DNA of 64,000 nucleotides from Haplodiscus bocki (lineage: Eukaryota), in NCBI GenBank assembly GCA_965655095.1, contig OZ296656.1, forward strand, positions 62,620,001 through 62,684,000, read 5' to 3'. Each line of letters starts with the position of its first letter. Within the stretch, counting starts at the first letter, position 1. The position numbers and the translations under genes are program-made. Below are positions 5,130-43,756 of the stretch, piece by piece. The notes beneath the pieces were generated by a model. The model saw nothing but the letters and a program-made list of their open reading frames with translations, had not been told where the DNA came from and did not search any database.

Positions 5130-5295
5130 AACGTCATCTGACGTCATCTGACGTCATGTGTGTATTAATCTTATAAATACTGACGACTCCCAAGTCACAT
5201 GACTAGGTCACGTGACTGACGTCATTCTCGGAGCCAATCCTGTGCTATCTTCATTCTGATTCGCTCCCGAGAGCACAAAAAATAGTATATACAGC
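5130..5295 (+). promoter_or_regulatory. Putative LTR U3 promoter: three CRE palindromes, E-box, CCAAT box, TATA-like box
   Basis: TGACGTCA at 5139, 5149, 5217; GTCACGTGAC at 5207; CCAAT at 5234; TATATA at 5286; all retained in the 3' LTR. Confidence 0.6.
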
Positions 5296-7147: not shown

Positions 7148-8419
7148 ATGGCAGAGAACACAGTATCATTTTCTGACTTGGCTTTAGACAAATTCTCAGG
7201 TAACGACCCTGATGAAATTGCAAAATGATTTCTGCTTACAGGTGAAAACAAAATCAACTTGTCGCTTGGATCAAGATCAACTGACGCTGCCGAAAGAGCA
7301 CGATATCTATTCAGAGAGAAAGCACTATTTTCTTCACTTCTTCGAGGAGCAGCAGCAGAATGGTATACAGACTCAATAGGCGATGCAGCAACTTGGGACC
7401 AGATCAGAACCGCCTTCATTGACAGATTTTCAGATAACCGAGACAAATTTAAACACAGAATTACAGCACAGAACTGCGTGCGAGGAAATGAAGAAATAAT
7501 CAAAAACTTCTATCACAGAGTCAAAAGCGCAGTTGACAAAGGATGACCACTAGACCCAAATGGGACCTAGGCCGAGAAAGATAACCAACAGAACCAAAGA
7601 AATGCCAAACACATCGAATTCACAGTTAGAGGAGTCAGACCAACCGGATTAAAAAGAAAAGCTCATGAATACCTAATAGAACATCCGAATGCTACCTGGG
7701 ATGCCTTCCAAACCCATATCACGTCCAAAGACGTCATCTACACCATCAGTTCAGAGCTAGTGCCTAATGCCACCTCAGATCAGAACAACAAACTCCACTC
7801 TCTGGAGCAACAGATCAAAGAACTCACTGCATTATTCAAACAGCAACAAGTAAACCAAATCGCCCAACCTAATTCTCGACCTGCGAACGCTGATAACAAA
7901 TCAAGACCGAATATGACCAGATTCTGTTCATACTGCCGAAGAATTGGACACGCTCTCATGTACTGCAGAACCAAAGCTTTCGAAGATCGGATTAAAAGAC
8001 AACAGACACGAAAAAACCAAGAGCGCCGCACAGGCTTCACTCATGATTACAATAAACGAAGAGGACCGAACTTTGGGTCTCAGATTAATCAGAGTTTCAG
8101 TCAGCAACCCAGATACGGAAATCAGAACAACCAGACACCCTATCAAAAAACTGTCTTCAACCCAGATAGGAACAAAAACCCAAACTCAGATAGACAATAT
8201 CACCAGAACAGATCAAGCAACTCCTGCAACAACGGACCAGATCACCGTCAGCAGGCTCAGTATAACTTCAACGCTGGACCAGAGATTTCTGATACTCAGT
8301 AGAACAAGAATTTTCCACAAAGCAACAACCTACCTACACCCAACTCAGTTCAATTCATCGACAATCCGGGACAAGATGTAGTAAATACCCTTTCAGGTTT
8401 CTTTCATTTAAACTTCTGA
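7148..8419 (+). pseudogene. gag: gag (capsid-like region plus CCHC zinc knuckle), several in-frame stops
   Basis: MAENTVSFSDLALDKFSG..., LRGAAAEWY...TWDQIRTAFIDRF retrotransposon gag motif, CSYCRRIGHALMYC knuckle; colinear with element 2 gag. Confidence 0.9.
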
Positions 8420-8432
8420 TGTCTCCGAGACC
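8407..8432 (+). promoter_or_regulatory. -1 programmed ribosomal frameshift site gag-pol
   Basis: T TTA AAC heptamer in gag frame just before the gag stop; pol ORF at 8419 is in the -1 frame; followed after 7 nt by GTCTCCGAGAC. Confidence 0.8.
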
Positions 8433-11400
8433 TGATGAAAAAAGTAACTTCAGATCACGTTTTCATTTGAATGTCTTCTACTTTCCCACCGAAAACTGCC
8501 AAAAAGACAGTGGACTCGAAATCAACATTATGCTCGTCACTGGTGCAGCCTGCTCAATAGTAAATTACCGAACCTTTCTTGAAATTGCACAATTTAGACA
8601 AATGATCACCGTAGTTAGAATTAAACAGAAGACAAAAACCTACACTGGCGATATTGTACCCATGATTGGACACACTACTCTATCTTTCAGCTTTGATTCA
8701 AATGGAGAACATTAATTTGAACTACGAATTTGGATTACAGAGACACAGACCTCAAATCTACTCGGGATCGATTTTTGCGGACAATGCGTTTCGAAATTAC
8801 ATTTTGAAAAACCAGCAATAGAACTCAAGAACACAGCGAATACTATTTGTTACGGTAATATGTGTTCAACAAATCCTTATCCCTTCGTTTCAAAAATACA
8901 CACTATCAGAATACCCCATCAGATTCACATTGATGCCAAAACTTCCAAAGTCTGGAAATACTCATCAGAAGATAAATCGCAGAGTTTCCCACCAGGGACC
9001 ACATTCATTCCTCATCGACACTCTGTCAAATCAGGACTAGATTTTGTTAATGTACTATGCACCCAATCCGAGAACTATCTTCCTATCTTGATGGAAAAAA
9101 AACAGAAACCACCAAATAAAGCTGAACAAATGAGTTATTGGATACTCTTCACTTGATATCTCAGACTATGAAAGACCCAAATATCAGATCAAAGACTGTG
9201 TCCAGATGGTAGTTTCAATCCTTACTGAGAATGGCCAACATAACGAATGTTTCCTTCTTCATTCCACAGTTCCATGCGAACCTGACATTCAAGATAAAAT
9301 ACAAATACTGATCGGGAAGGACGAAAAAATTTTTCAAGCTAACACCGCCATCGCTCATTGCATTTCAGCCGATGCTAAAATGAGTGAAGGATTTGAAGAA
9401 ACAATTTGTCGTAGAGTGAACGGACTTCAAAAAATTTGTCGAAGAGCCAAAACAACCGTAGGTTCAGCTCTCCCCTATTGGGATCCAGAATCCAACAACT
9501 TCATCTACAATCTCGTAACCAAATCGAAATTTTTCGAAAAACCAAAATTAGACAACATTCGACTCTCACTCGCAAATATGAGAGGACATGCTCTACCTAA
9601 CAACATCACCAAAATTTCAATGCCAAAAAGCGGATGCGGACTAGATAAACTCCAGTGTACCGATGTTTTCAAACTCATACAGGACACTTTCAAATACTCT
9701 GGGATCCAGATTCAGATAATCATCAAACTAGAAACACACTCCATAAGAGGAAACCCGTCATCCAACAACGAGCGCTATGTCGAAGAGGAAGTAGAAAATT
9801 ACACAAACGAATGGACTAAAGAACGAGATGAACTTGAAACTGACTTCACGAGAGCTTCAAAATCCTGTCAACCACCTTGTACCGAACAATTTCCTATCTT
9901 GAGATCAAAACAACTTAAGGATGATCTGATCGATTACTACCTTCAATACCAATCAGAGGACATCAAGAACCTCGTAAAACATTTTGACTTCCGATACACC
10001 AACCTCGAGGAGGAAGAACTAGTTACCCTTATTGATGTGATCATAGACTCCAGAGACGTATAATCTCAACACAATTTCGACATTGGCCAGACCAAACAGA
10101 AATTTCATGTCACCTTGACACCCAATTCAGAGCTCAGAAAACAGCGAACTAGCAAATGCCCTCTTCATCTCAAAGAGAAACTATAAAAACTACTTTGACA
10201 ACTCCAAGACTCTGGTATCATCCGAGAAATGGGGGTTGATGATGAACTAGGATCACACTTCGTCAATTCAATCATTTTACTTCCAAAAGCAGATTACAGT
10301 AAACTAGTCATCGACGCTAGATATCTAAACTCCCTCACCGAACTAACTAACTATTTATGGCCACTAGAGCTACTCCAGATGATTATGACTAGAATCAATG
10401 GCAAAGACTTCACAGCAAGCGATCTTTCATGCGCTTACCACCAAGTCCCTCTATCTGCTGAAACACAGAAACTGACAAGTTTTGTATAAGGAGGAAAGAA
10501 TACACCTATCAAGTTGGATACTACGAACTCTGCGGTCTGCCTCAATGGTTCAGCCGGATGATGGCTATCAAATTCGAACCCCTCATCAAGAAGAAGGAAG
10601 CTATAACCTACCTTGATGATAGTCTACTCCAATCCCATACCAAAACAGAAAAGTATTATGAAAAGTAAAGTTAAAGTTCCTTGGCCACGTTATCTCCGAA
10701 CAAGGGATTCAACCAGCTGCAAAAAGAATAAAAGACCTACAGAACCTGAAATCTCTTGAGAGCGAAAGAGATGTATCGAAAGTCCTCGGATGTCTAGGCT
10801 TTTATAGCTGTTAGATCAAGAACCTGCACGTCGATAGTCAAACATTCTACGAACTGATCAAAGATACTACTCTTTTTATGTGGACCGATCATCATGAAGT
10901 ACTTTTTAAGAAGTCAAAACCAGAATCACCGAAGACACTATATTGGCAGTACCTTCAACCGAGTATTCCTTCCACATACACGTCGACCCTTCTTATGTCG
11001 GAACCGGTTGCATACTAGTCCAACAAATTCCCGAAGGAAAGAGAATAGTCTCTTTCAAATCTAGAGTTTTTGATAACGCCGAGCAAAACATGTTGACCCT
11101 CCACTGCGAAATATATGGAATAATATCTGCACTACAAACTTACGAACAATATATCATTGGATCGCCCTTTCCGATCTATCTCTACTGTGATCACAAACCC
11201 ATACTCTACCTTTGGGGAAGAAAAGGACAGCTATCAAATCGATTTTTCAAAGATCAAGTCATCATCACTAAATTCCACAACCTAAAGATCATTTGGACAC
11301 CTGGATCAAATCTCGCCTTCCCCAATATTCTCAACAGAAACGTGACATTATCAGTGGCAAACAGATTGCAACTTCAACATAAAGAAATTCCGCTTGATAT

Positions 11401-13878
11401 TTCATTCTATTACCAAGACGGTCACAAAGTACACTAAACCATCAAACACGAAGAAGAACAAAACGCATCCTACAACGACTGCTACCCCATCATCTGCCAA
11501 GAAGGCAATACGAGAAAGACCCTCAGACTTAAAAACGATGGAAACGAACATCACGTTGAGGATTATCTCGAAGATAATGAAATCCTAGCCACCATGCAAG
11601 AGATGACTGACTGCTTTGAACTCAGAAAGACCATTAACCAATATAAACAACTTTGCTCAAGCATTAGCCCAGCATCAAGTACCTTTAGTCTTAACGAACG
11701 CGACTATAGTGATTTTGAACAGTATGATGAAAAATCAACAGATGACGAAACCGAAATAGCCGAACTCAACCTTGAAAGTCAAGACCCTGATTTTCGAAGA
11801 GATCACTCCGTAGCTCATGAATTGTTCCGCACGAAGACAAAAGATAAACCGATTCTCAAGAAACCGATTTCTTTCGAACTGTTCCCTCACGTAGACACAT
11901 CCGACTTGATTCAGAAACTCAGTGATTTTGCTCGCGACGCTGACTTAGACATTCAAACACTACTAGAAGAACAACTCAACGATCCTGTATTACAGGTCGT
12001 TCGCAAATGGATGAAAACCTCAGATACAAGACCTCAGAAGACACCGGATATTAACCAATCAAAAGCTCTGCTATCATATCACAACAAATTTGAACAACTT
12101 CTCATCGAACCTGACATCAACCTCCTATGCTACAGAGAACCGATTCAGGATACCTGCAGAACCGAGATGAAAATTTGTGTTTTCTTATCGCTATTCCTAC
12201 CACTCTTTCGTTTAGCCCACACTCATAGCCATAGTGGTCATCCTGGAATATTCAAAACCTTGGAAAACATCAGACAATACTTCTTCTGGCCAGGACGATA
12301 CAAGTGGATAGTATACCTGATAGAAGACTTCATCGAATGCCAAACTAATAAAACGGAAAGACATGACCTACACGAAGCACCATTGGAACAATGGGGAGAA
12401 CTAGAAACAACACCTTTCAAGACGATACATATCGATCATAAAGGACCATTTCGCCCTAGCAGTAACTCCAACACTCATTGTCTTGTCGTGGTAGACGCGT
12501 TTTCTTGACTAATTGGAGCCTATCCAGTTAGAGACACCGGAGCCCAGACCACTATCAACGCAGTAGAAAAATGGATCACATCATGTGGTATAACCCAGAG
12601 AATTGTTCAAGATAACAGTTCAAATTTCATAAAAAGCGACTTCTTCAACTGTACTAAAGAGTTTGGAATGACCCTTGCTCCTCGTACTACCTATTCTCCA
12701 TGGACCAACGGCAAAGTCGAAGTACAAAATCAGCACCTCACCAGATACTGGCGAAACTTCATGAATCAATCTGGAAACAATTGGTCAAAACTTGCATCCA
12801 AATTTGCGTTAGCACATAACACGAGTGTAAACTACACAACTGGCCAGACACCTTATGAGATCGTTTTCCGAACAAAACCGCAGATTCCAATGACTCTTAA
12901 GCTCGGACTATTACGAGACAAAGATAAACAATGCAAATCAGAAATCTGTGATGGACTTCAATCTCATACGCACGGTGAAAACAACCTGCCGAATAATTCT
13001 CTTAGCCGCCTACTTCGACCAGAGCTTTCCGACGAGCTACTAAAACGAGAAAATGAATTTAAGCGAATTTACTCGTCAATCTATCAGAGGTGTCGCCGGA
13101 TTACGTCAAAAGTACACGAGCACCGAAACCGATTCAAGCTCGGACGACCTATCGGCACCGGACAAAAAGTGTTCTTAGAAAACCACGCGCAAGACCTCAC
13201 GAGGTCTCAGAAACAGAACCAACTACGAGTCAGTCCGTTCACAGTAACAAAACAAATCACGAATAAGACGTACGAAATACGAGAAGATGCAAATCCCGAC
13301 AATATCAAAAAGCACGCATAGAAATCACCTGATCGAATATCTCCCGAAAGAAGAACGACTCCCTCCGTTTATTACTAACTACGCTGTCATATCCAGAGAC
13401 TCCGATTTCTCTAAACATTTAGTCAATTCGCAAATTAAACAATATGAGTCCGGTAAAGAAAAACACTCCCTTGACGTAATGCCCTTTATTATAATACCCA
13501 TCCAAAACAGTTCAGACAAACAACAAAAAGATAATAATGAATTTTCACCTATAGCAGTCTCTGGAATACATTCGCCTGATATTTCAATGCAGCAATCACC
13601 CAGAAGTCAAAAACCGAGCCCTTATGAAAATAGAACATTTTTTCACCTACCCCAATTACAATACTTTGCCCACGACTCCTATGCTTAGACAACCGCACGA
13701 TCTACCAAACCCAATACGCGATTTTCAACCTTTTAATTGAAATACCCCAACAAATTTAACTAGTGCTACCGATAAAGGCAAAATAGCCCACTTCGCGACA
13801 AAAGTTAAAAAGAAGTATAAAAAAAATGATGCTAACAGCTCACTCAGAACACTAGAAAGAAAGGGATACAAAGACTAG
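8419..13878 (+). pseudogene. pol: pol polyprotein: protease, dUTPase-like segment, macrodomain, RT, RNase H, unknown spacer domain, integrase; multiple stops and frameshifts
   Basis: LVTGAACS (mutated DTGA), LVIDARYLN and YLDD (RT), IHVD...CDHKP (RNase H), HTHSHSGHPG, HIDHKGP, NGKVEVQN (integrase). Confidence 0.95.
9299..9724 (+). CDS. TARG1/OARD1 (Poa1p-like) macrodomain embedded in Pol between protease and RT
   Basis: AIAHCISADAKMSEG, FIYNLVTK, KPKLDNIRLSL, ISMPKSGCGLDKLQ match the TARG1 motifs LAHCISED, YIYYLITK, KPTYENLQKSL, LSMPRIGCGLDRLQ; uninterrupted within ORF 9206-10063. Confidence 0.93.
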
Positions 13879-16860: not shown

Positions 16861-18964
16861 ATGGCTATCATAGAATGTGCTATATTTCTCTTGATACTAA
16901 AATATTCTATATGTGACAAAGACGAACCCAAACCTGACGACATTGCACCTTCTGTACAAGTATCCCACTATGACTGCACAAGATGACGGAAAACAACCTT
17001 TATTCACTCAACGAATTTGAACCTAGTAATATGGCACCTCAGACTATTCAGATGAATGACGTGAAATTGACTTTGTATACCAAACACTTCCGGACTGAGA
17101 TCAATGCTACAATTTGCCGAATCAAACACCAAAGAAACAGATTTTTTTGCGGGCTGCATGATCTTACTAGTATTGATGTTGAACAACCTCAGATAACAAG
17201 TGACACAGATTTGATTCCTGAACAATGCAAGCAAGCCTCTGAGGGAAGATCACTAACTTTATTTGACCATAAATTAACTTTCGAAAAGGACAAGAAAAAA
17301 ACTCATCACAAATGGACTGGAAATGTAGATGGAGACAACCGTAACCGTAATGGGAAGGTTACCAATGGATAACTAAAGATACCATTGAAAGTCATATTCA
17401 AGATATCACCTTGAAAATGAAAATTAAAGATGGCAAGATATTCAACAGAAACGATCAAATACTACCTTGTGACTCGGAAAAACTTGGATGTGAAAGTACA
17501 TCATTAGATCCTTATGCCTACACGTGGAAAGCCCCTGAAAATTGGATCTTATCAGTGCTATAAGAAGACTATGCACATATGCTAAAAAATGACAACCACG
17601 ACTACATAGTTAGCGAAACCACTTCAGAAAACAAGTACTTCTTCGAAGTAAAGAATAACCCTCAGCATCTTTGAAACAAACCAACTGAAGTCTACCCAAC
17701 CATTTAGGGCTCAATGTACGTCGCAATTCACTATGATGGTTTTGAAATGAAAAGAGGACGAAAACATAACGAACTGGGACCTCATCTCTTACAGTATCAG
17801 AATAACGCCTTCTTCTTGAAACCTGGGAATCTCTACGTGTACAGTCCCCAACCTAAACCAGCTGACCCATGAATTAATACATGGTTAAATATGGACTACG
17901 AACTACAACAAAGTACAAAGCTTGATTACCTTTTCTTTGAGAGTTCCAGAGCACTACAGGCATCAGAACTAAATCTATTGCAGAACCAATGTGAACAAGA
18001 GAGAATCCAAGTTTTCACTATCCTGATGTTATCACTTGAAAACCCCAGACTCGCAGGATATACGCTCACTGGAAACAGATCAATGTTTCTAGAGACAGAT
18101 GGAAGCCTAGCTTGGCTCTACTCCTGCCCACAAGTACGATCACCCCTACATACCCTTAACCAATGTTACGACAAAATACCCATCCTCTATAAAGGACAAA
18201 TACAATTTGTAGATCCAATTACCAGACAAATCTTGCCCGCTGCTTTGCCACAAAACTACTCCGACCCAATCAACAATTTATTGCAAATGGATATGGACAA
18301 AAAAGACTCATGGTACTCCCTTACACCCGAAATCACGCACAGAGACAGACCTGCAGTATTCGCCCCCAAAGACATATTTCCCTTCAATACGCAAAAGTTT
18401 CCCCAATCAGCTAAAGCAGGTATGTATACAAAAGGACAACTCAGTGATTATTGGGATGCCATCCTAATGAGTTCAGCATCAAAGAATGCCTTACAGAAAA
18501 TTACACTAAACTTAATAGTCCCCTCAAATGCAAAGAAAGGCCCTGATGGATATAGCTACTACGCACCCCGAACTGACTTCTTCGTAGATAGCATGATATG
18601 TCCGAAAAAATTCGAGAACAAATTTGTCCCGTTTTTTGGGACCATTAGCTATTGGCTCGATAAATGTGGAATCTGGTTTGCCAAATTCCTCTTCGTAAAA
18701 CTGATTATTGACATTGTTGTCACTATCATGAGAACCTTAGGAATACACCGAATAACCAGAAGATCAGTCAGTTTTGGAAAAATCCTACTATCAGCAACGT
18801 ACAGCCTCTTCGTGGTTTCAATATTTAGCTCAGTCTATTCACCAGCCAAACCCATCGAGTCTTCGACGCCTATAGCTGTAGAAATGCAAGAATCCACAGA
18901 ACATATCTACCCCTCTGTTCAAACACTACCCAACAATGCCCCTAACTCAGTTTCACCCGTTTAA
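16861..18964 (+). pseudogene. env: env-like glycoprotein, class III fusion protein-like (chuvirus G / herpes gB-like pattern), disrupted
   Basis: Signal peptide MAIIECAIFLLILKYSIC, VSHYDC...YSLN, Cys-rich ectodomain, NQCEQER...LAGYTLTGNRSMFLETDGSLAWLYSCP, C-terminal hydrophobic segments; colinear with element 2 env. Confidence 0.82.
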
Positions 18965-18994: not shown

Positions 18995-20240
18995 ATGCAC
19001 TAAGACGACCATTCGTTCTCCGACCTAGACTCTCTTCTATCTAAAGACAATATCACAGAAGACGACCTCCTACAGCTTTCAGAACTATTCCCTGAAGAGC
19101 CGAAAACCCCTTCTAAACAAACCTCCATCAATCACGAGCTAGAGAACCTCTCACTTACACCAACTGACAAACCTACAATTGCCCTAAACGTTAGACCCAG
19201 TAATCGAAAATCAACTACCCCCTCACGTCAACTGTTTCATAAACAGAAGAAAAACGAAGAAGCCACTTCCAAATACATTACCACCCAAAACCCTCAGTTC
19301 CAATTTAACCTGACCTACAGAATTAAAGAGAATATTAACCAGGGGAGAATAGTATTTTGGGACTCCAAACGACAAGAGTTCACCCTAGAAAACCTATCAC
19401 TTAAATATCACTGACTATCTGTCCCCCTCGGATCAATTTCAGCAATCTGTTAAGTTTATCTCCACCTTCACTGAAAGAGAAATTTGATGACGAACAACTT
19501 CTTAGTACCGCCCTTGCTATTGAACTAGAAGATGTCAAAAAGACCTTAGCCCAATTCAAATTAGACAAATCCAAACCCCTACACAAGGGACCCTTCAGCT
19601 TGAAAGTAGATTTCTAGATAAAGAGGAATTTTAAAGAGATGGTTGATATTGAATCTCGACTAGAGAAACTAGAACCGGGAGCACAACCCCGCGATTGGAA
19701 TTTTTATGAGATTTTTTGGAAGCTTGAAAACTTTTCAATAATTTTCAATAAAGCCAAATTTTTTGAAGAAACGAAAAACAAAAATGATACTGATCCAAAT
19801 TTGGCACGCGACTTTTGTAGCACAGCTTTTCTCAGCAAACCTTATGGCTACAGTTTCTTTGTCCACGCGTTTCCTTATGGATGTGGTCCAGCACTTGGCA
19901 AATCAATGTCTATCACTATATCTCTGATCTCCGAACACTTCGACGATATCCTCACTTGGCCTCTAGAGGAACAATCCAAATCAGTGTTTTCAGACAACCC
20001 AAATCTAGTTTAATCTGGACTAACTTTTTGAAGACTAATGATAAAACGACACCCTGTTTCTGACGACCATCACCCATACAACCAAACCCCAGTTGTGGTT
20101 TCTTCTCCTATCTTCCCCACGAAGAAATGTTCAAGTCCGATAGAAACCTGATGAAGAACAACAAAGTCTATTACCAAACAAAAATTCTTGATTTGCCGCG
20201 AACCCCGGTTTCAATTTCATCAAGCGTGAACCCCCGGTGA
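18995..20240 (+). pseudogene. Post-env ORF4 (~410 codons, disrupted) ending in a short coiled-coil plus TRAF-type MATH domain (approx. 19700-20190)
   Basis: IFWKLENF, FCSTAFLSKPYGYSFFVHAFPYGCGPALGKSMSI, FDDILTWP, RGTIQISVFRQ, CF*RP...NPSCGF...LMKNNKVY follow the TRAF-C consensus (IWKI, S.PF....GYK, NG.G...GTHLS, YD.LL.WPF, F.RP....N...G, KDD.IFI). Confidence 0.87.
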
Positions 20241-20242: not shown

Positions 20243-22247
20243 TGTCGTGTTTGACATACAGCAGAAAAAACAATAGACTCAACTCCCGAGATAATAACGT
20301 CATCTGACGTCATCTGACGTCATGTGTGTATTAATCTTATAAAAAAAGACGACTCCCAATTCACATGACTAGGTCACGTGACTGACGTCATTCTCGGAGC
20401 CAATCCTGTGCTATCTTCATTCTGATTCGCTCCCGAGAGCACAAAAATTAGTATATATAGCGGACGAAAATTGCCCCTTCAGACAAGCGCCCTTTCAGCT
20501 CATACCAGATGTCTAACGACCCGTGAAGTCACTCCATCCAACTTCCAACGACAGCAGATTGAATCCAGTGCAGTACTCTTCGAGCAGTAATCGTTAGTCG
20601 AATAATGTTTTGACTGTTGCTTTTGTTTCTAACTTTTACTTTCGGTACTATTTTCCTTATAATCTAACTTTAACTTTTTTTTCTGATGTAAAACAAATAT
20701 CCAAGTAACCAAGTTTAACTACTAACTAATAAAAACAGTAAAATAACTAAGTTTAACTTAAACATTATTTAAAATAACTTTAACCTAAACTTTTCAAAAA
20801 AGTACATCTTACCGAGATTAACACTACTTGAACTTTATTTAACCTTAACTTCAAACTAAAATCTAAAACACAACTTTCAGTTCTACTCATTGAAGTGAAC
20901 TCAAATCCTCTGTGAGGTGGTCTCGTCAAGAACGGACTCATTCAGCCTTGGTCAAGTACCGGCTTGATATTTGGAAAATGCTCAAATGCTCATTGAGGTA
21001 GTCTCGTCAAGTACGGACTTGTTCAGCCTTGGTCAAGTACCGGTTGATAAAATGTTTTTTATCCTTAAAACTAGTAACTTTACTTAGGTTTTATTTAACT
21101 TGAACTTTAACTCTAAACTAAAATCTAAAACACAATTTTCAGTTCTACTCCTTGAAGTGAACTCAAATCCTCTGTGAGGTGGTCTCGTCAAGAACGGACT
21201 TATTCAGCCTTGGTCAAGTACCGCTTGATAAAATATATTCCATCCCTAAATGTTAAACTCTGCTTTAACTTTATTTAACTTTAATTTTAAACTAAAATCT
21301 AAAACACAACTCTCAGTTCTAGTCATGGAAGTGAACTACTCAAATTCTCTGTGAGGTGGTCTCGTCAAGAACGGACTCATTCAGCCTTGGTCAAGTACCG
21401 GCTTGATCTTTGGAAAAAACTCAAATACTTTTTGAGGTAGTCTCGTCAAGTACGGACTTGTTCAGCTTTGGTCAAGTACCGGTTGATAAAATATTTATTA
21501 TCCTTAAAACTGATAACTTTACTTGAGTTTTATTCAACTTTAACTTTAAACTAAAATCTAAAACACAACTCTCAGTTCTACTCATTGAAGTGAACTACTC
21601 AAATTCTCTGTGAGGTGGTCTCGTCAAGTACGTACTCAATCAGCCTTGGTCAGGAACCGGCTTGATATCTGGAAAATAACTAAAATTTCCTTCTCATTTG
21701 AGAGGATCAAACTAGTCCTCAACTGAGGTAAAGTCCTAGCCTGTGGCGGACTTATTAAAACAATGAACTAAATACTCTCTTTAAATAATCTGACTGATGA
21801 TTCTTTTAGATGTCCTTGTGTTCATAATATTTATTTCACTTTTCCGCTTTTGTATCTTACCTCTATGATTTATACCTGAATTTATTTCATTTGTTTTGAT
21901 ACTTTAATACTTTTAACCTTTCTGATATTTTGTCTTTCTGATTTTATTGATAGTTGTAAGTCACCAGTTGATATTATTTCCGAAACTAATTTATCTGTGT
22001 TTAATAACAAGGTTTCTTCACAATATTCACCAGATAGAAAAAGTCCTTCCTTTCGAACTCACGCCTTACACCACCTTTGCTGAAGCGCAGGAAGGCAACA
22101 GTCGCAAAATTGAATTAGGAGACTTGTCTTGAGTTTCGGGATAGTTTTCTAGCGAGGAATAGAGTGGCTTTGGAGACTTTCCGCTGCTATTCCATAAAGG
22201 CCAAGACCCCAACACCTCACACACCCTCTACACTTTTGCACGTCACA
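20243..22247 (+). repeat. Element 1 3' LTR (2005 bp) with six copies of the 50-bp core
   Basis: TGTCGTGTT...CACGTCACA followed by TSD CGGA; cores at 20913, 20994, 21175, 21352, 21433, 21611. Confidence 0.96.
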
Positions 22248-31204: not shown

Positions 31205-31722
31205 TGTTGTAAACCGGGGGTTCTTAAATTATTGCTTTGCTCTCACTTGCGCATAAGTCTCAAAAAGTTGTTATAAAAAGAACATAAATTTTAGAAAGGT
31301 CTTTTACAAATATTGGAAAATTCTAAGTCATGAGCTTTTCTGACTTAGCTGTTTTTATAAATAAGTCTTAGTGAAAATTCAAGACTCTTTGTCAGTTGAA
31401 TTTCAGGGGTGTTTTAGAGAGAGCAAAGGAAAGAGAGAAAAGAACGACTATTGCCTTCTTAACGTCCGCATAGGATCGTTTGTTTCTGTTAGCGTATTTT
31501 TCTCTCTAGCTCAGGACAGTTGTTCTGTCACGCGGCTTTTCCTTATTGGCTGAGCGTTAAAAGAATCGTCTTTTGCAATTTCATGCGAGCGCGTTGCTAT
31601 TCGCTCAGACAATCTAAATGCTAAGATAATTCCTCTTCGGATATTATTTCTCTCTGAGTCATTTTCCCTGGATATTCTCCTTTAGGAAAATGAACTAAAT
31701 TAAACGGTAGCGCATTGCTACA
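31205..31722 (-). repeat. Element 2 3' LTR (518 bp)
   Basis: Near-identical to 43239-43756 (about six substitutions by eye). Confidence 0.97.
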
Positions 31723-31826: not shown

Positions 31827-33509
31827 TTAATATTTAAATGTTTTAACAGAAAGATTAATGTTGAAGAAAGGTTGAAAGGGTGCAAAATGTTTGTAAGCAA
31901 GAAAAGTTATTAAAAGGTTTATGAGTTGAAAGTTTGAAGGGTTTTGACTGTTCTTCAACTCAGTTATTCCTTCCAGTGGGAACGTTTTTTCATCAATGGG
32001 CCATGGGAGACGGGTACATTTCTCTTTCCAGTTAGGATCTTTATCAAAATTGTATGCAATGGGGTAATATATTGTTGAGAGTTGAGTCTTGATGTTTCCT
32101 CGTTTAATGTTGAAAATTGAGTACTTCTTGTACTGTTCAACGTCCCAATGTTCAGCATGGGTAAGAAGTGCATGGAGACATCTTTCTAGCTTCTCATACT
32201 GCTGATCATCAACAGCTTGAATTAGCTGTATGGCCTCAGCTCTTTGGATGTCTATTTCCACTCTCATTACTTGTAATTGTTTGACCAGTTTATCGATTTC
32301 GGTCTGCTCTTTGATCTGGGCAGCTTTTTTATTCAAAGACTCTTGAAATCGTTTATTAGCCAGATCATACTCATCGAGTTTTTTCTTTAAGAGTATGTTG
32401 GTCTTAATCGACTCTAACAATTCAGATTGAAGAGACTCCGCTTTGGAGGTCACTTCCTCTAATTGTTGTCTGACTTCTTTGTTCTCTTCGAACAAGTCAG
32501 ATGTCACTCTTTCAGAGATTTCTACCTTTGATTCCGCGCGATCCGCGTTAATCTTGGCATTTGCTCTTGATCTGTTAGCACACCTCAGAGAAACTTTCAA
32601 GTTGTTCAGTTCAATTAGTAGGTTCTTATTCTGCTGTTCAAATTCAGCAATTGCAAATTCGGTGTCCCAGAGTGATGCTGTTAATTGAGTATCTGGTTGG
32701 AAATCGGAACTTTCTGGGTCTGTTTGAGTTCCAATTGATGTTGTTCCGGTTGAATAGGATCGATTACAATTGCGAGTAGTAAAATTAAGATCTGCCTGGC
32801 TTGACGAATTGCTGGGCAAATATGATGATAAAGGGCTGTTGAAAATAGGATTGGGGTCGTCAGGGAACGCAGTGACGACACCAAAGGGAGCTTTAATAAG
32901 AGAGTTCAAATCATGATTGTAAATCACGTATTTCCTTTCGTCTGGGATCCTGTCCTTTAATCTCCATTGATTAAGGTCTTTAGGAATGTTCACCATCAGG
33001 GCAGAACTTCGATTAGCAGGGATTACAATGGAACAATTCAATTTTTTATTGAAGAGTCTGACTTCTCCAATACTACGGGGCAAAGACCATTCATTACAGT
33101 CTTTACGAATGCCATATTTAAGAAAAGATATAAATTGTGGATCAGCGTTATCAATATTCAGTTCCCGCTCTCGTTGAATTTCCAATCTCTCTTTGAGACT
33201 TGGAAAGGATTTTTTATCCTTCGGGAGACCATCATCCAAACGTGAGAGACCACGTGAGGGTCCTTGTCCATCATCGAGTCTCATTGACAAACGATGAGAG
33301 GGTTTAGGATTATTGCCAAGTCTCATTGACTTTTTGGCACTGATGTTTTCTATTGATTCGGTGGCAACACGTTTGTTGGCATTTTGGTAAATAGAGACTG
33401 CCTTTTTATTAATTCGTCTTGCTTTTCTGGGCTTGAAGGTAACGTTAGGGGGTCTCAGGTCACTGGGGATAAAACCTTCAGGCTCGAATATTTCAATAGA
33501 GTCAGACAT
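31827..33509 (-). CDS. Post-env ORF4, 560 aa, intact, long coiled-coil, unknown function
   Basis: Uninterrupted ORF between env and 3' LTR; heptad-rich E/K/Q/L region roughly aa 285-440. Confidence 0.8.
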   Translation of the reverse strand: MSDSIEIFEPEGFIPSDLRPPNVTFKPRKARRINKKAVSIYQNANKRVATESIENISAKKSMRLGNNPKPSHRLSMRLDDGQGPSRGLSRLDDGLPKDKKSFPSLKERLEIQRERELNIDNADPQFISFLKYGIRKDCNEWSLPRSIGEVRLFNKKLNCSIVIPANRSSALMVNIPKDLNQWRLKDRIPDERKYVIYNHDLNSLIKAPFGVVTAFPDDPNPIFNSPLSSYLPSNSSSQADLNFTTRNCNRSYSTGTTSIGTQTDPESSDFQPDTQLTASLWDTEFAIAEFEQQNKNLLIELNNLKVSLRCANRSRANAKINADRAESKVEISERVTSDLFEENKEVRQQLEEVTSKAESLQSELLESIKTNILLKKKLDEYDLANKRFQESLNKKAAQIKEQTEIDKLVKQLQVMRVEIDIQRAEAIQLIQAVDDQQYEKLERCLHALLTHAEHWDVEQYKKYSIFNIKRGNIKTQLSTIYYPIAYNFDKDPNWKEKCTRLPWPIDEKTFPLEGITELKNSQNPSNFQLINLLITFLAYKHFAPFQPFFNINLSVKTFKY

Positions 33510-33692: not shown

Positions 33693-36083
33693 TTAAGGTG
33701 GGGGTAATGGAGCATTTCCATTAGTGTTCGGAGCATTTCCGTTATTAGAAGTATTAGGAGCGTTTCCATCAATACTGTTATTCCAAAAAACGCTTGAAGT
33801 ACTGGGAGCATTTCCGTGAGTACTAACAATTGAATTTAGAGGGGCATTCCCCGATGAATGAAACACATTAGGATCATTTCCTTGTGACTCGGTTATGTTT
33901 GAACTAATCGGAATTGGATTGTTGACAATATGTACATGAGGGTACAAAGAAGTTGGATTTTCTTCGTACATTGGTGCAGCTAAGGTTTCATTACCTGTAA
34001 CGTTCTGCATACGAAGATTACCATTATTTTTGTTTTCATCAGTTTAGTACATTGGGGTCTGTAGTGAGAGAACAAACAAGTGAAAAGTGGCACCTAGCAT
34101 AGTTTTGACAAAACCGAAAGTGGCACCAGAAACTTTTCGAATTTCAAGTCCGCGGAGGACAATAACAACAACATCAATAAAAAACTTTACCAAAAGGAAA
34201 CAAGCAAAAAAGTTTCCCAAACATTGAATGTAATATCCCAAAAGACCAAAAGTTTCTTCAAACTTGTCGACGAAAAAGGAAGGCGTCAATAAATGATCCA
34301 TCAGAAGTCTGTCATCTAGACTCAAAAGGCGTTCTAAGTTTCCAGGATCGGAAATTCGAACTGTATTGCCTTGTGTCGAAATGGTTCTTGTAAGCTTCTT
34401 TAGGACAGTGTCGGAAACTGAAGCATGGATTATATTATCCCAGAAATTTTTCATTTGCTTGGGAGTATACATTCCAGCACGCCTAGTGTCGAAAGTAGGA
34501 AACTGAGTAATGTGTCCAAGTTCAGTTGGCTTGAACAACAAAGGTTTATTAAAAGGCATGGGATCAGGTAAAAGTTGATACCAGGAATTGTCATTCTCGA
34601 GATCAAGTTGAAACACATTAGTGTAATCACCCAAACAGGGTATCTCGGATGCGAAGTCATAAGTCTGGCGGGTGATAGGATCTAAAAATTTAGTAGTCCG
34701 TTCAAACAAGATCGGAATCCGATCATAGCATTTATCAAGCACTCTTAGAGGCGACAAAATTTTAGGACAATGATACAACCAAGCGACACTTCCATCGGTG
34801 TCCAAAAACATAGACCTGTTCCCAGTTAGCATATAACCGGCAAGCCTTGTATTTTGCATTGCTAACATTAGAATTGTTAACATTTGAGTACGCTCAAGTT
34901 CGCATTGATTTTGCAAGAGCGTCATTTCTGAATGTCTCAATTGCTTGGTGTTGAAGTACATTATGTAATCCAATTATGTTCCCAAGTGCAATTCATAATC
35001 AATTTCATCCGCGCCGACAGAACGCCCAGGTTGAGCACCAACCCATTTGCCGTTTACTTCGCTAAAACTTAAAGACGTATAAGAGACCTGGCTCGTGTTG
35101 TCAATCGAAATATGATATGCGTTAGATGAATATTCCTTTGTTCGTAGTTCTCCACCTGGCATTGCGACACCTCCTTGGTAATTCACAAACAGACTTTCAA
35201 AATTTGTCTTGTACAATCTTTCCGGTTTTCCACATAGCTCATAGCTTTCAGGGAAAACTTTAAATTTTATGTTCATTCGCTTTCCAGTGTCGTTGAATTC
35301 ACTAAGAAAGAAGAATTGATTTTCCTCTCGATCCGTTGTCAAAGGATAGTGCAGCATTTTTGCATCTTGTGTGAGAAATTTTGTCATCACACAATTTTCT
35401 GGAGTGTCCCAGGTATATGCAAAAGAATCGAGAGTAGTGGTCTCGCAACCACCCTCCATTAAAAGACATGGAAGTTTCTTCCGGTCCCTATTGGAAACCT
35501 CTTTGGTCCCATAATTATAAGTCAAGTTGACACGTTGCATTAACGTTTCAAAAGTGTAGTGTTTGATTTGGCCGCTAGTACATTCAATTGTTGAGCTAAC
35601 AGCTTGGCCATCATTGAAATTTGATTGTGTCTTTGTATCAAATTCAAAGGGAACATCAAAATTTTCATCAAACGCTGTGATTTTGATTTTTTTGGACTTC
35701 GATGCAAGTCTACACATTTCAGGTGTGACTATCATGTCATAAGTCATGCTATTTTGGTCATGCACGTATGACGTATGCGACAACATTCCACAATTGTATC
35801 GAAATACATGGACCTTGACAGAACACATTGTTGCTGACAGGTCGGTGCGATAATTTTTTTGGTAGAGTGTAATAGTAGCCGGAGCGATATACAAGTTTTC
35901 AGGTGAAATCTTGCATTCAGCTACTTTGTTCAGTGAGTACATTCGATTGTCCTACCTTTTGGTACAATCGTAATGAGAAACAATTAACTCTTGCGACACA
36001 TTGTCTGTGTAATCCACTTCAAGAGTTTTAGTTAAGGAATTAAAAAGAAAAATAATAAAGACTAATAGGTTATTACGCGTCAT
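33693..36083 (-). pseudogene. env: env-like class III fusogen-like glycoprotein (~797 codons, three in-frame stops)
   Basis: MTRNNLLVFIIFLFNSLT signal peptide at 36083, VSHYDC, YSLNKVAEC, NQCELERTQ...LAGYMLTGNRSMFLDTDGSVAWLYHCP, TM segment; all fragments are in one frame. Confidence 0.85.
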
Positions 36084-36106: not shown

Positions 36107-36194
36107 GCACTAGATGTTGTAAATGCATAAAAACACCAGATGTTGTTATAGAAATACCAGATGTTGTATTATCTACAGAAACACCAGATGTTGT
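36107..36194 (-). repeat. Four internal copies of the element's own LTR-end/PBS junction (ACAACATCTGGTG)
   Basis: + strand GCACTAGATGTTGTAAA 36107, CACCAGATGTTGT 36134, ACCAGATGTTGTA 36156, CACCAGATGTTGT 36182 versus the true junction GCACCAGATGTTGTAAA at 43231. Confidence 0.9.
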
Positions 36195-39100
36195 GGTTAA
36201 TTAGATGGAGGTATAAAAGATACAAATGCGTTGAATAGCATAGGATTTGTTTGGAATGACTTGGCGAGTTTTTTTTGAGATTTTTGTGATTAAATAGAGA
36301 AAGAAGTAGTAGAAGGTGAGAGAAGTTTTGGAAGTATGGCTTCCCGTACCACTCGCGAGGAATATTTCGTAAAGTTCCTGTGTTTCGTGAGCGTGGAGCA
36401 GTGCCAGTACTAGTTGACTGAAAATTGTTAGGATTAATAGAAGTTCGAGGTAAAGGACTAGGTGTAGTCGGTTGACTGGTTATGACTGGTGATTCCGATT
36501 GAAATGAAAGAGGAGTGTGAGGAGATGAGTGTGGAATACCAGAGTCAGGTGAACTCGCTGAGAAATTCGGCGTCAAATGGCAACTGTTGTCTTTAACAGG
36601 CGACGTAATAGTCGTGTCCATTCGTGACGGTCTACATGTGTCAGGAAAGATCGGTAAATAGTCATTCAAATGTTGTCGTTAAACAATTGAATCGATTGGT
36701 TGATTTAAATGAGAGAGTCGGCATTTTGCATATTCATTATAGAAATGCTCGGTTTTGTCGTCGTTGAAAGGCTTCTCGTAATTGGATACTAAGTTCGGTA
36801 TTTCATTGTCACGAGGAAAATATTCAACAAGGTGATTGCGATGGACGACTTGAGTCCTCGTCGGATGTGCGTCGAGAGCAATCTCGTAATTAACCTTCGT
36901 AATTACTTTAGTCACTATGTACGGTCCACTTCGGAGTTCGCACAATTTTTGAGATTTTCCGAAAGCAACATTATGATTTTCCAAAAGAACTTTTTGTCCA
37001 ACTCGTAGTGGTTTGGCAAGTTTGTACTTGTTTCTGTAGGATAAAGATCGATAGTTGGCTTCTCGGACTTTCCGATATACTTTGCGATAAATATTTTTGA
37101 ATTGAGTTTCGCGGTTAAGTAAATCCATCGAGCTTTTCGAGAATAAAACATTGTCAATGCATGAATGACTTGTTTTTTTATTCACATGCGTATGATTGGG
37201 TAAAGATTGACAAAATTCAGACTGACATAAATCATTGTCGTCTCGAACTAGGCCCAATTTCAGAGAAATTGGTATTTGAGGTTTAAAACCAAAGACAATT
37301 TCATAAGGAGTTGTTCCAGTTCTGGAATTTACTGAAGTATTGTGTGCAAAGGCAAATTGACAAACCAACTAGGCCCAATTGTTTCCAGCTTCAGACAGGT
37401 AACAACGGAAATATCTACTCAAATGTTTATTCTGTATTTCATTTTTCCCATTGGTCCATGGCGACCATTTCGTTCTGGGAGCATGAGTTATGCCAAATTC
37501 CAGAAGGAAAGTAGAGAAATCGGTACTCACGAAGGAAGTCCCTCGATCATACACAAGCTTTTGAGGAATCCCAAAAGAAGTTATGAACGTAGACATGGCT
37601 TCGATAGTATGAGTAGTATCAGTTGATTTAACTGGATACACTTGAATGAAACGTGAAAAAGCGTCTGTCACAACCAAACAATGGTGTTTGCCATCACTCA
37701 TTGGATTCAGAGGTCCTTTGTGGTCAATGTGTACAGTGTGGAATGGGTAAGGTACTTCCTCTCCCCTTTTTCATTGGGAGCTGTGTTTTGATCCTTTCGG
37801 ATTTGTTTATTCTTTCGGCAGATTAGGCAACTCTTCGTTAGAGTTCGTACCCATTTATACATTCCAGGCCAATAGAAAAATCGTTTCAAAGACAAAAGAG
37901 TTTTTTCAGAACCCGGATGACCAGACAATCGATGGTCATGTGCAGCATTGAATGCTTCGATGAAACTACTTCGTGGTAGGCAAATTTGCTTAGGTGAATG
38001 TTTGCTTTTGCGGCAGACTAATTGTGTTTCTTTGTCGACAAACAGTTTTTCAAATTGATTTGCATAGCCAAGTAGGCCTTTGCATTGTCGTGATTCTACG
38101 TCTTTTGTGGGCAATTTGCCTCTTGATATCCATGAACGGACAATTTTTAAGACGGAATCATTCTCTTGATTCACCAGGATATTATCACAATCCAAAGTGT
38201 CAGTTGTCAATTTCAGTGTTTTGCTTGATTCATGCACGAAAAAAATGGATGGAGTACTATAAACATTTGTTTTCCGGAACTCTTCAATCTCTTGATTCAG
38301 AGCGAGGTCCTCGTCGGATGCCTCATCGTCACTGATTTCACTATCAGACTCAATTTCTGAGTAAAAGTTTTCATGAACTTTGGCTTCCACAACCATTGGT
38401 GGAGCTTGCCATTTTCGTCTATTGTTAATGTTTTTGCCTTCTCGGAAGGAATCAGAAACATTATACAGAGCTTTAGGTGACTTCGAGTTAAAAATTGTAC
38501 AAATCATTTCAGTGCCATCATTTTTAAGGTGAAGTGCTTTTGTTTCACCCAGATGTGTGCAAACAATTGGATAAAAATCATCATTTCCATCATCAGCAGG
38601 GCTGTTGTGGTCAATGAGATATTGAACTTCTTGTCCGCTTTGGTTGAAGAATCTAATATCTTTGGGAACTTCTTTATGAGCCAATTGGTGACCGTTCAGG
38701 TCCTTCAAGGAAACATTTCTACTCAACAAATCAGGAAAAGCTAAGTTTTTTCCAGGAGTCCAGATGATTTGGAGATTAGTGAACTGTAAAATGATCACTT
38801 GATAACGGAAGAATCGGTGAGACAATCTTCCTTTTCTTGTCCACAGGTACAACAGTGGCTTGTGATCACAAAAAATTTTGATCGGATGTGGTGAACCAAT
38901 GATGAAATGCTCATAAGTTTGTAGAGCGGATATGATTCCACAAAGTTCACGATGCAAAGTTGACATCTTTTGTTCATCTTTTGTGAACACTCGAGAATTG
39001 AACGAAACTATACGTTTTCCACTTGGAAACTCTTGTACCAAGATGGATCCAGTACCAATGCTGGATGAGTCAACATGAATGTGGAACGGGTATTTAGGAT

Positions 39101-41259
39101 TGGGTACAGCTAGAATAGTTTCTTCACTGAGTCTGTCTTTAATGTTCTGAAAAAGTTTTTCATGCTTTTTCGTCCATTTGAATGGGACATCATCTCTCAA
39201 GAGCTCATAGGAAGGTTTTGAATCCACATGCAAATTCTTTATGAATGTACTGTAGAAACCTAAACTTCCGAGTACGCGCATTACGTCTCTCTTGTTTTCA
39301 GGGCTCTTCAAATCTTTCAGGCCTTGGACCTTTTTGGCAACTGGTTGAATCCCTTTGTCGGAAACAATGTGTCCAAGGAATTGAACTTTTCTCAAAAACA
39401 GTTTGGTTTTGTTTGGGGCAGCTTTCAGTCCAGATGATCTCAAACATTTGAAATAAGATTCTAAATTTTCCCACATTTCCGCTTTGGTTTTTGCTTGGAG
39501 GATCACATCGTCAATATATGTGATGGCTTGTTTCTTAGCAATCATTTCAGCAAAATGGATCGTCATGATTCGACCCAAGAAATTAGGAAGACCGAATAGG
39601 CCATAAAATCCTCGTTCGAACATGTATTGTTTTCAAACCAACAACGAAACTGGTTAGTTTCTTGGTATCTTCTGAAAGAGGTACCTGATTATAGGCTGAA
39701 GCCAAATCACTTGTGATATAGTATACACCGTCAAGTCTAGTCAGTAACATTTGTACTGGCTCTAGAGGCCATGAATAGTTTGACAAATCGGTTATGGAGT
39801 TGAAATATCGAGCGTCAATCACCAATTTGACGGTATCTCCTTTGGGTAGAATGATGATAGGATTAGTAAATAACGAACCCATTTCAACATCACTTCCCAT
39901 TTCGCGAATGATTCCTGCTCGTTGCAGTTCATTGAGAAGGATTTCTAGTCGATCTCTGTAATGCAAAGGTACCTTGGAAGGTCGTTACTTCCGTAATTCA
40001 GCATCTTTTTTAAATTTCACATGGAATTCTTGAGTGATTCTTCCAACATCATAAGTAAATTTAGAGAAAACGTCATTGTTTTCAATTAAAACTCTCAAAA
40101 GATGTTGTATTTCACTGTCGGTAATATCAGATTCAGAAAAACCAAAGTTTTTCAGAAACGTTTGTTCAGTAGGACTGAAATCAGAAAAGAACTTTTCGTT
40201 AAGTTGTTTTCGTTTGATATCACACGCCAATTTAGGCGTTTGAGGTTGCAGGGATTTTACCTCATTGGAAAAATCTGTAGCTAATTCGTTTTGTGACACA
40301 GCCATTTCTGATAGTTTGTTTCGGGAGTCGATTTCAGTTAAAGAGTAAATGTATGGTTCAGTTGAACAAACATGCATGTCGTTGTTCAGTTCTGAATCGA
40401 ATGCCTTGACAAAGTCAATGAAGGCAACGTTGTCAATCACGCTCATTGTTTGAGTTGTTTCTTGAGTGAAGTCAAGGAGAGTATATCCAAGAATTCCCTT
40501 TCTAATAGTAATACTATTGGGATTTGGATTATTCAGCATTAAGGGGTACTTTGATTCATCATGTGAACAATAGACATGATAAGTATAAATTCCAGTGTCA
40601 AGAACATTTCTATGTAAACGAAAACTTGTTCCTTTTCGAAACAAATGCTTGTCTTCGTCTTTAGCTATAAGCGTCAATACTCGCGTTGAGTAAGGTGCAA
40701 TAGTCAAATCTTGTGACAGCTCCACAGAGTTCACTTGCGAAAAATACGGAAAAGGTTTATCTAAATAGGGTGATAGTTTAACACACTTGCCGGGGAAGAC
40801 CGTTAAAATTAGCATTGGGTTTCTCAGATTAATAAATTCACCAAATTTTGCTAAAAAGTCCATTGCAAGAATGTTCATTCGTGCCTCGGGTGAATCAGAA
40901 ACATAAACAGTATGTTCAATCACACAAGAATATTCTACGTCAAACGCAGATTGAATCACTATTTTCCCTTTCATGGGCATGGCATGTGCATTTGCAGCCA
41001 AAGGTGATTTTTCAAGAGGCATTACAACTAATGGTTGAATTTTTTCAATCTCTGTGAATGTATCACAGTTGATAATGGAGCACGTTGCGCCAGTATCAAT
41101 CAGAAACTGAGTGCTAAGGCCATTACTTTTATTTGTGTCTCCGACGGCGTATTGGAATAATTCAATAAAAAAATGTTGGCCGGGCATTCCAGCTATAGAT
41201 GTGTGAGGAATGTCATTTGGATCCTCACTTTCTTGGTTCGGAGACTTGATTATTTTAAA
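36169..41259 (-). pseudogene. pol: pol polyprotein: protease, dUTPase-like segment, RT, RNase H, spacer domain, integrase (three stops, two frameshifts); no macrodomain
   Basis: FLIDTGATCS, LVIDARY, YIDD, IHVDSS...CDHKPL, HDHRLSGHPG...CLIC, VYDRGTSF, NGKNEIQN, GPY motif. Confidence 0.96.
41235..41259 (-). promoter_or_regulatory. -1 frameshift site gag-pol
   Basis: T TTA AAA (41259-41253) directly before the gag TAA; pol is in the -1 frame; 7-nt spacer then GTCTCCGA as in element 1. Confidence 0.8.
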
Positions 41260-42347
41260 GGATTGCATGACTGCAGTGTGTCATAAAATGAGTTAACCTT
41301 GTCAGGTCTTGCCTCAAATCGAACAGTTCCAGAGTAACTGTTACTTCTGCTACGATTGCGGTTTGCAACGTATGGACTGTCGCTACGACCTCTTTGGGTG
41401 TTAGAGCGGTCATTGGAGTTCGGTCTGTAAGTATTTGGCGATTTTGATCGGTTGGGATAGTTTTGTGAGTATGTCTCTTTCGGTTGGGGAGGTGCTTTTT
41501 CCTCATTCAGTTTTTTTCTCTTGAGTGACCAACAGAATTTTACTGTATGGCCGGATTTTTTGCAGTATGTGCAAAACCGAGTGAAATGTTGTTTCATTTT
41601 AGGATTGTTTGGATCATAGGTTGCATTGATCTGATGATTCTTCACCATATTGCTGATCTCATTCAACGTTTTCTCAATACTTGTGAAACGTGAGTCAGTG
41701 GTTACAAAATTGGAACTTGTTTGTTAGAAACCAGACATTTCAGCGCTAATTACAAGACTTGTGTCTTTGTTTATTATTAACGTCTGTAACGCGTCTCATG
41801 TTTTGTTGGGGTCTTCAATTAGTACCTGGTGGGCTTTCTGTTTAAGTCCAGGGGGTGTTAAACCACGTATAAAATAATCTTTATACTTTCCAATTCGTTG
41901 GTTTTCACATGCTGTTCGCGCATTTGCGTCAGCGTCGGAAGGCGTTGGCCATCCTTTGTCAACTAATGTTTTTATTCTGTGTATATAACTTTTGATGTTT
42001 TCGTCGGGCTGTCTCTTCAAATTTTCAGCTTCGATTCGGAATCGGTACTGCATTTTCCCGTCAGTGAATCGAGCAATAAACTGAGTTTTTATTTCACCCC
42101 ATGTCAATGCAGCGTCGAGTGAATCGAACCACTCAGCAGCTGGACCGCGTAAGACGGAACCGAAAAGGGCTTTCCTTCGATCGTCATATACGGTTTGAAT
42201 GTTATTTTCATTTGTAGCAGGTCTACTGCCTAGCGAGAAACTGATTTTCTTCTCTAGCAAACGAACAAACGCTGTCGGGTCTTCACTTGAGTCAATCCCG
42301 ATAAATTTCTCTAATGCTAAATCTGGATATGCAACAGTGTTCGCCAT
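41250..42347 (-). pseudogene. gag: gag with CCHC zinc knuckle (two in-frame stops)
   Basis: MANTVAYPDLALEKF..., LRGPAAEWF...TWGEIKTQFIARF, CTYCKKSGHTVKFC. Confidence 0.92.
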
Positions 42348-42595
42348 TTTCTATTTAACAATTTTAGTTGCTCCAATTTTGTTCGATTTTGTGCTCTTTG
42401 CACTACAATTATCTATTCAAGTTGCTTTAACTTGAAAATGCTCCTTTGTTTATCGATTAATCACGTAATTATACTGTGATTTTGTTATTACGCTTTGTAA
42501 TAACAAATGAAATTTTGAATTTTGTGTGGAAGAGTGTCTTTTACTCTTTCACGTGCTTCGCTTTGAATAAGAATTTTATTCAACTCAAAATTTGT

Positions 42596-43238: not shown

Positions 43239-43756
43239 TGTTGTAAACCGGGGGTTCTTAAATTATTGCTTTGCTCTCACTTGCGCATAAGTCTCAAAAA
43301 GTTGTTATAAAAAGAACATAAATTTTAGAAAGGTCTTTTACAAATATTGGAAAATTCTAAGTCATGAGCTTTTCTGACTTAGCTGTTTTTATAAATAAGT
43401 CTTAGTGAAAATTCAAGACTCTTTGTCAGTTGAATTTCAGGGGTGTTTTAGAGAGAGCAAAGGAAAGAGAGAAAAGAAGGACTATTGCCTTCTTAACGTC
43501 CGCATAGGATCGTTTGTTTCTGTTAGCGTATTTTTCTCTCTAGCTCAGGACAGTTGTTCTGTCACGCGGCTTTTCCTTATTGGCTGAGCGTTAAAAGAAT
43601 CGTCTTTTGCAATTTTATGCGAGCGCGTTGCTATTCGCTTAGACAATCTAAATGCTAGGATAATTCCTCTTCGGATATTATTTCTCTCTGAGTCAATTTC
43701 CCTGGATATTCTCCTTTAGAAAAATGAACTAAATTAAACGGTAGCGCATTGCTACA
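43239..43756 (-). repeat. Element 2 5' LTR (518 bp)
   Basis: Direct repeat of 31205-31722, flanked by TSD TTAC. Confidence 0.97.

Follow-up and report, generated by a model that had tools for sequence, protein, structure and literature searches.

The env gene on the minus strand of element B is most probably the envelope gene of a Ty3/Gypsy element of the 'HSV/gB-type errantivirus' kind, and would code for a class III, type I membrane glycoprotein that moves element particles between cells. A second Ty3/Gypsy element, A, carries a homologue of the gene in the window, by which we mean the whole stretch of 64,000 nucleotides that was analysed. Both env copies in the window are pseudogenes, and A and B are decayed copies of gB-type errantivirus families, not intact elements. 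The function would be carried by open relatives of the two genes, while the copies described here are dead.

Two Ty3/Gypsy elements and their env genes

The features of both elements are collected in Table 1. The 4-bp target-site duplications are TTAC for B and CGGA for A, and the LTRs of A, each about 2 kb long with repeats of about 260 bp inside it, are distinguished by large indels. The order PR-RT-RH-IN is common to A and B, and the Pfam domains found in gag-pol (PF17917, PF17919, PF17921, PF24626, PF22938, PF00665 and PF03732) are typical of Ty3/Gypsy. The best PDB match of the RT-RH region of B was the Ty3 RT (E 2e-23), followed by retroviral RTs (3e-15), with no BEL RT among the matches listed. 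A BEL/Pao backbone was rejected, since no Pao-type Pfam domain was present in the gag-pol pieces scanned, and the RT was nearest to that of Ty3. The Gypsy backbone proposed earlier from the letters alone is supported by domain content, domain order, the affinity of RT-RH and the LTRs with their 4-bp duplications. Although the interior of B contains at least seven stops and two frame changes, its two LTRs differ by only 1.2%. Because the LTRs are so similar despite these internal breaks, B was probably already defective at its last copying, which would then have occurred in trans, or else its LTRs have been homogenised.

Table 1. Coordinates of the features of elements A and B in the window
Feature	Position	Strand	Basis or remarks
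Element A, Ty3/Gypsy	4899-22247	+	LTRs, target-site duplication
5' LTR of A	4899..6823	+	
PBS-like TGGTGCGAC of A	6827-6835	+	same motif as B
gag-pol of A, decayed	7157..13439	+	homologous to B throughout
TARG1/OARD1-like macrodomain	9341..9718	+	between protease and RT in pol of A; E 7e-21 to C6orf130/OARD1 structures
env of A, same family as env of B, decayed	16861..18964	+	tblastn, Pfam
YPx[ILVMF] tail site of env A	about 18910	+	
Broken ORF after env of A, ending in MATH/TRAF domain	ORF 19004-20013, domain 19618..20013	+	PF21355 E 1.8e-8, above cut-off
3' LTR of A	20243..22247	+	96 mismatches in 1,740 aligned nt against 5' LTR
Element B, complete Ty3/Gypsy, gag-pol-env-ORF4	43756→31205	-	LTRs, target-site duplication
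5' LTR of B, 518 bp, TG...CA	43239..43756	-	
PBS-like TGGTGCGAC of B	43228-43236	-	2 nt inward of the 5' LTR
gag of B	41253..42350	-	Retrotrans_gag PF03732, zinc-knuckle-like Cys/His stretch, at least one stop
pol of B, PR-RT-RNaseH-IN(-SH3)	36172..41280	-	three stops, two frame changes
env of B, class III (gB-type) fusogen gene	33693..36083	-	translation, Pfam, models
YPx[ILVMF] tail site of env B	about 33950	-	
ORF4 of B, open	31827..33509	-	between env and 3' LTR; about 520 conserved aa
3' LTR of B	31205..31722	-	6 mismatches in 518 nt against 5' LTR

Env B is read in a single frame of 796 codons plus a terminal stop, in which codons 44, 370 and 680 are stops too. As judged by hydropathy only, it has the type I topology, with a signal-like N-terminal stretch (residues 6-16, Kyte-Doolittle 11-mer 2.61), an ectodomain spanning residues ~22-612 with 14 cysteines between residues 40 and 483, and a C-terminal transmembrane (TM) segment (residues 625-643, 19-mer 2.75). 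The cytoplasmic tail is of low complexity, carries the motif YPHV and terminates in PPP. No R-x-x-R motif was found in env B. Env A is split over three frames, with frame changes near 16980 and 17350 and stops at 17561, 17672, 17705 and 17870; of the 16 cysteines that could be aligned in P0036, the open relative nearest to it (88% identical to the C-terminal piece of env A), it has kept 12, and its tail carries YPSV and ends in SPV. The two genes are 33.5% identical over 558 columns (tblastn, E 3.5e-99), a similarity that, with the PF24664 matches of both genes given below, is far beyond chance and bears out the view of the sequence-only reading that both elements share one env. The motifs listed in that reading as common to both proteins were only partly recovered: HYDC, YSL..C, NQCELER and GSVAWLYHC are all present in env B, but in env A the N-terminal motif is divided between two reading frames and has in part decayed. 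Env A is thus a homologue, as had been proposed, but with its three frames and four stops it is more decayed than had been implied.

Fold of the env ectodomain and predicted fusion mechanism

When the stops were read as X, env B matched the Pfam family PF24664 (Monjiviricetes_fusion) with an E value of 1.2e-40. This was the sole family above the cut-off on env B and on all 16 of the relatives scanned, and it was found on env A in two pieces (1.1e-22 and 8.8e-8). The model of the env B ectodomain, also built with X at the breaks (mean pLDDT 76.7, pTM 0.53), displays long beta hairpins, a central helix of 39 residues and a beta-rich C-terminal domain. Searched against the PDB with Foldseek, it gave herpesvirus gB in 32 of the 32 matches listed (E 1e-13 to 1.6e-10). 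Against BFVD the top matches were chuvirus-like, xinmovirus and qin-like glycoproteins, with E values down to 3.9e-29 at 13-19% identity; among them were that of Tacheng tick virus 4 and a number of others labelled chu-like, at E 1e-29 to 1e-24, and herpesvirus gB came in no earlier than rank 25. VIA, an independent aligner, returned class III proteins only in rows 1 to 11, namely gB, Bourbon and Thogoto GP, and Chandipura and rabies G. The lead row was gB domain IV (Z 8.2, rmsd 3.4 Å, 155 aligned) and gB domain II scored a Z of 6.7 (rmsd 2.6, 75 aligned), values of Z from 5 to 8 being rated as middling by the aligner itself. Domains I-II, an unbroken stretch, were also modelled on their own; this model reached a pLDDT of 88.9, gave class III proteins in 9 of the 10 top VIA rows and superposed on two viral G models with TM-scores of 0.60 and 0.59. 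Superpositions of the whole ectodomain were poor (TM 0.2-0.3, rmsd about 40 Å), and therefore the class III match holds domain by domain.

Taken by domain, the models contain the predicted class III set of an elongated beta fusion domain, a PH-like domain, a long central helix and a beta crown. These are features of herpesvirus gB, rhabdovirus G, thogotovirus GP and baculovirus GP64, among which the best PDB matches fall, although env B is only 9-16% identical to the solved class III fusogens and its domain I-II region is shorter than that of gB. Since the ectodomain model matches herpesvirus gB and the chuvirus and xinmovirus glycoproteins, and since Pfam, Foldseek and VIA agree domain by domain on one class, the modelled fold of env B is class III (gB-like) and not F-type. 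An F-type env was rejected on three further grounds: the lack of R-x-x-R in env B, the absence of the furin consensus R-x-K/R-R from all 46 open relatives, and PF24664 standing alone in Pfam. Structure prediction had been named in the sequence-only reading as the test that could refute a class III fusogen; the class III domains were recovered by Foldseek and by VIA, and both the preference for class III over the baculovirus F-type env and the likeness to chuvirus glycoproteins are upheld, the nearest viral matches being chuvirus-like and xinmovirus proteins. With these and related glycoproteins of negative-strand RNA viruses env B shares PF24664 and its best BFVD matches; it differs from them in being encoded by a reverse-transcribing element and in its long cytoplasmic tail with a YPxΦ motif. 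Genes for partner glycoproteins of the gH/gL kind, as in herpesviruses, were not recognised in the element. At the sequence level, searches of the PDB with env B and with the family profile gave no relative, tblastn against phages gave no match, and a profile of 16 distant env relatives aimed at named proteins recovered nothing but a single member of the profile itself.

The domain I-II model has two hairpin tips, with C98 and C168 each located at one of them. Loop 1, which follows C98 and reads G-M-L-S-H-T-S, is moderately hydrophobic and rich in histidine; among the 46 open relatives G99 is kept in 39 and H103 in 31, with hydrophobic, aromatic or histidine residues frequent at positions 100-101. 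Loop 2, at the second tip (residues 160-170), is polar across the relatives. This combination of a somewhat hydrophobic loop 1 with a polar loop 2 fits the single-loop state of the insect gB-type envs, for which one fusion loop only is reported (Chary and Hayashi, eLife 2026, PMC13524379).

Working members of the family would be type I membrane glycoproteins with a class III fusion fold. By analogy with class III fusogens, env would trimerise on particles and bind a cell, its refolding would drive the loop after C98 into the target membrane, and collapse of the hairpin around the central helix (residues ~372-410) would fuse the two membranes; by the same analogy, no furin cut would be needed. 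With its histidine-rich tip, the loop may be triggered by low pH in endosomes, and the YPxΦ conserved in the tail may serve sorting or endocytosis. The likely purpose of such a protein would be to move element particles from cell to cell within one animal, from soma to germline. Drosophila gypsy moves from soma to germline. How gB-type errantiviruses enter cells is, according to PMC13524379, not known.

Relatives, selection and origin of the env family

A homologue search with env gave 97 proteins, none of them bearing a name, and a search of representatives gave 1,443 clusters at E ≤ 0.001 and 188 at 1e-30. The alignment used below (n = 118) comprises 91 of the 97 homologues and 27 long matches from the best 150 representatives, with the env B ectodomain, X at its breaks, as reference. 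All 14 ectodomain cysteines are 93-100% conserved among the rows that cover them. Forty-six of the 118 relatives are open from C40 past the TM segment, at pairwise identities of 20-95%; a hydrophobic N-terminal stretch is found in 42 of these 46 and a TM segment in all. In the env tree, env B groups with the open near relative P0003 (81% identical) and has the longer branch of the two (0.13 against 0.042), in a tree made by a quick method with unlabelled rows and long branches. The relatives are known from env sequence alone, and the open ones presumably sit in intact Gypsy elements. Five near-full-length open env genes (P0013, P0015, P0023, P0037 and P0045) lie on contigs of 2.4-3.9 kb, which could be transcript assemblies and so hint at expression.

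Of 77 tails, 61 contain YPx[ILVMF], where shuffles lead one to expect 5.0; this motif was framed once 12 relatives had been seen, and the relatives are not independent. It may act as a tyrosine sorting or late-domain-like signal. The C-terminus is P[PVI] in 26 of the 46 full-length relatives and [ST]x[VIL] in 17, the latter presumably a class I PDZ-binding end. Neither the YPxΦ tail motif nor the orphan ORF4 of the B type was found described in the literature searched.

Between A and B, synonymous sites of env are saturated (pS 0.74-0.79) and replacement sites are not (pN 0.40-0.45), with codon-position identity in the order 2>1>3, which supports long purifying selection on env. The values were obtained from the unbroken pieces as they lie, and codons were paired through the protein alignment, which favours low pN somewhat, although one block of 304 codons is nearly ungapped. 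For integrase and gag pN was 0.35-0.50 and for RT and RNase H 0.21-0.23; the constraint on env appears similar to that on gag and integrase, and is consistent with co-inheritance of env with pol since the split of A and B. Env would have been present in the ancestor of both families and kept under selection from then on. The earlier expectations of long-term selection and of conserved cysteines are sustained by pN well below saturated pS, by the near-invariance of the 14 residues and by the 46 open relatives. The same pattern refutes a passive viral fossil or a chance resemblance: both window copies are broken, as a fossil would be, but this conservation and the E values of 1e-40 (Pfam) and 1e-29 (Foldseek) leave that explanation a virtually negligible probability.

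A class III fold could also be kept for a job other than fusion: it might block receptors and so hold off related elements or viruses, or it might serve the trafficking of particles. The weak hydrophobicity of the loops would agree with it, and receptor interference has been proposed for solo chuvirus-like glycoproteins in mosquitoes (PMC7642597). However, the env position has been held in two complete elements with saturated synonymous sites, and the whole architecture is conserved, the cysteines and glycines of the loop tips included, so that we regard this possibility as very unlikely. There is also precedent for the capture of a viral gene: Anakin elements of mosquitoes are BEL/Pao retroelements with a Chuviridae-like glycoprotein (Dezordi et al. 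2020, PMC7642597), and the Gypsy lineage described here might have acquired a chuvirus (Jingchuvirales) glycoprotein in a separate, lineage-specific event of that sort. Among the best BFVD matches, Tacheng tick virus 4 and chu-like glycoproteins indeed stand ahead of gB, and a C-G-M-x-S-H-x-S loop is, by eye, common to env B and the mosquito BEL gB rows. Yet xinmovirus, qin-like and rhabdo-labelled proteins score as the chuvirus ones do, and since these viral groups score alike at 13-19% identity no donor stands out. The env family is moreover very deep, with members only 20% identical, and the loop and cysteine order recur in published insect and planarian Gypsy envs, for which PMC13524379 favours ancient inheritance. 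A separate capture of this kind is accordingly judged unlikely, and the reading as the env of a gB-type errantivirus is preferred.

The published work places this env in known company. Chary and Hayashi (PMC13524379) describe 1,512 env-bearing Ty3/Gypsy elements across animals, 221 with ENV_HSV and 1,291 with ENV_F, and report that mosquito BEL chuvirus-like glycoproteins used as baits led to 114 gypsy elements with homologues. Burro, a group of giant Gypsy elements of planarians described in 2019 (PMC6431247), has an env that matches mononegavirus fusion glycoproteins and, as cargo, a MATH_TRAF_C domain. That a Gypsy backbone bearing a chuvirus-like glycoprotein would be something new, as the sequence-only reading implied, does not survive these reports; the older view behind it is that of PMC10084718, which describes Gypsy fragments adjoining Jingchuvirales glycoproteins without clear capture. 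Because Gypsy elements with a gB-type env are already known, the finding adds only one more lineage of them, apparently unlisted. Like the HSV/gB-type errantiviruses of PMC13524379, A and B are ordered gag-pol-env, have a Ty3/gypsy pol and encode, between signal peptide and TM, a gB-like ectodomain with a cysteine beside the fusion loop, and a furin site is not obligatory; unlike the elements of that survey, which kept only those with intact ORFs, A and B are broken. The C-G-x-x-S-H-x-S loop of env B and the order of its domain I-II cysteines are, by eye, those of the Insecta_C1, Platyhelminthes_C1a and mosquito BEL rows, the eight cysteines 87, 98, 124, 168, 206, 213, 231 and 284 following the Insecta_C1 order, and env B may, by eye, fit the C1 layout of that paper. 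No errantivirus row of supp2 of PMC13524379 contains any of the family motifs SLDP, TNYD, TNFE and AYTW, although alignment gaps there may conceal one, and TGGTGCGAC, the PBS motif, is absent from the table in supp1; this env family therefore probably lies outside the published set, as far as these two supplements reach.

With Anakin the elements share an LTR retroelement body, a chuvirus-like gB-fold glycoprotein and a similar first fusion loop, but the backbone is Ty3/Gypsy here and the glycoprotein, 13-19% identical to its best viral matches, is far from the sampled viruses. As in Burro, a Gypsy element carries an env matching mononegavirus fusion glycoproteins and, in A, a MATH domain; in Burro, though, env is joined in frame to gag on one side and to pol on the other within a polyprotein of roughly 4,900 aa, whereas here env follows pol as an ORF of its own, and the MATH domain of A stands after env.

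Extra genes and the rest of the window

The macrodomain of A (Table 1) could possibly counter host ADP-ribosylation; it is absent from the pol of B. Some retroelements carry macrodomains. No report of one in a Gypsy pol was found in the literature searched, which consisted of titles and abstract openings, with thin coverage of subscription journals and without Repbase. About 3 kb between pol and env of A (13700-16860, plus strand) contain no recognised ORF and include short tandem repeats at 16098-16305 and 16442-16610. The words 'macro', 'accessory', 'cytoplasmic' and 'TRAF' are absent from the main text of PMC13524379.

The reading frame of ORF4 is intact while gag, pol and env of the same copy of B are broken. 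Its middle part looks coiled-coil-like by eye, and 92 relatives at 56-93% identity were found, most of which share the start position and end near residue 520. More distant relatives were not found among 8,000 candidates scored, Pfam gave no match, and the best score in the ESM Atlas, 0.81, was below the useful range. Homology of ORF4 with the ORFs that follow env in A is unsupported (best E 0.86).

Open natural members are numerous in the env family, its alignment is deep and its domain model is confident, which makes the family suitable for testing if a class III env can do without helper glycoproteins. Judged by their tail motif and extra genes, these elements may be more virus-like than the gag-pol-env picture implies, and the host range of gB-type Gypsy elements would be extended if the host group lies outside the taxon list of PMC13524379. 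A bolder reading, to which we assign a small chance, would make A and B 'complex' infectious Gypsy retroviruses from a host group missed by the survey, entering cells by means of a class III fusogen that acts alone and combines conserved sorting and PDZ-type signals in its tail, and carrying accessory genes against host defence, namely the TARG1-like de-ADP-ribosylating domain in pol, the TRAF-like gene after env and the orphan ORF4. Under the same reading, chuvirus and xinmovirus G could descend from a retroelement env, since the env family is as deep as the viral G families.

No tRNA gene was found in the window, and the 74 ORFs outside both elements gave one weak Pfam match, below the cut-off. 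Assembly gaps, seen as runs of N at 1540-1739, 47135-47741 and 51041-51645, all lie outside A and B. Between the two elements, positions 23200-26500 hold dense short ORF pieces, without a Pfam match, that resemble another decayed mobile element and that may be Polinton-like.
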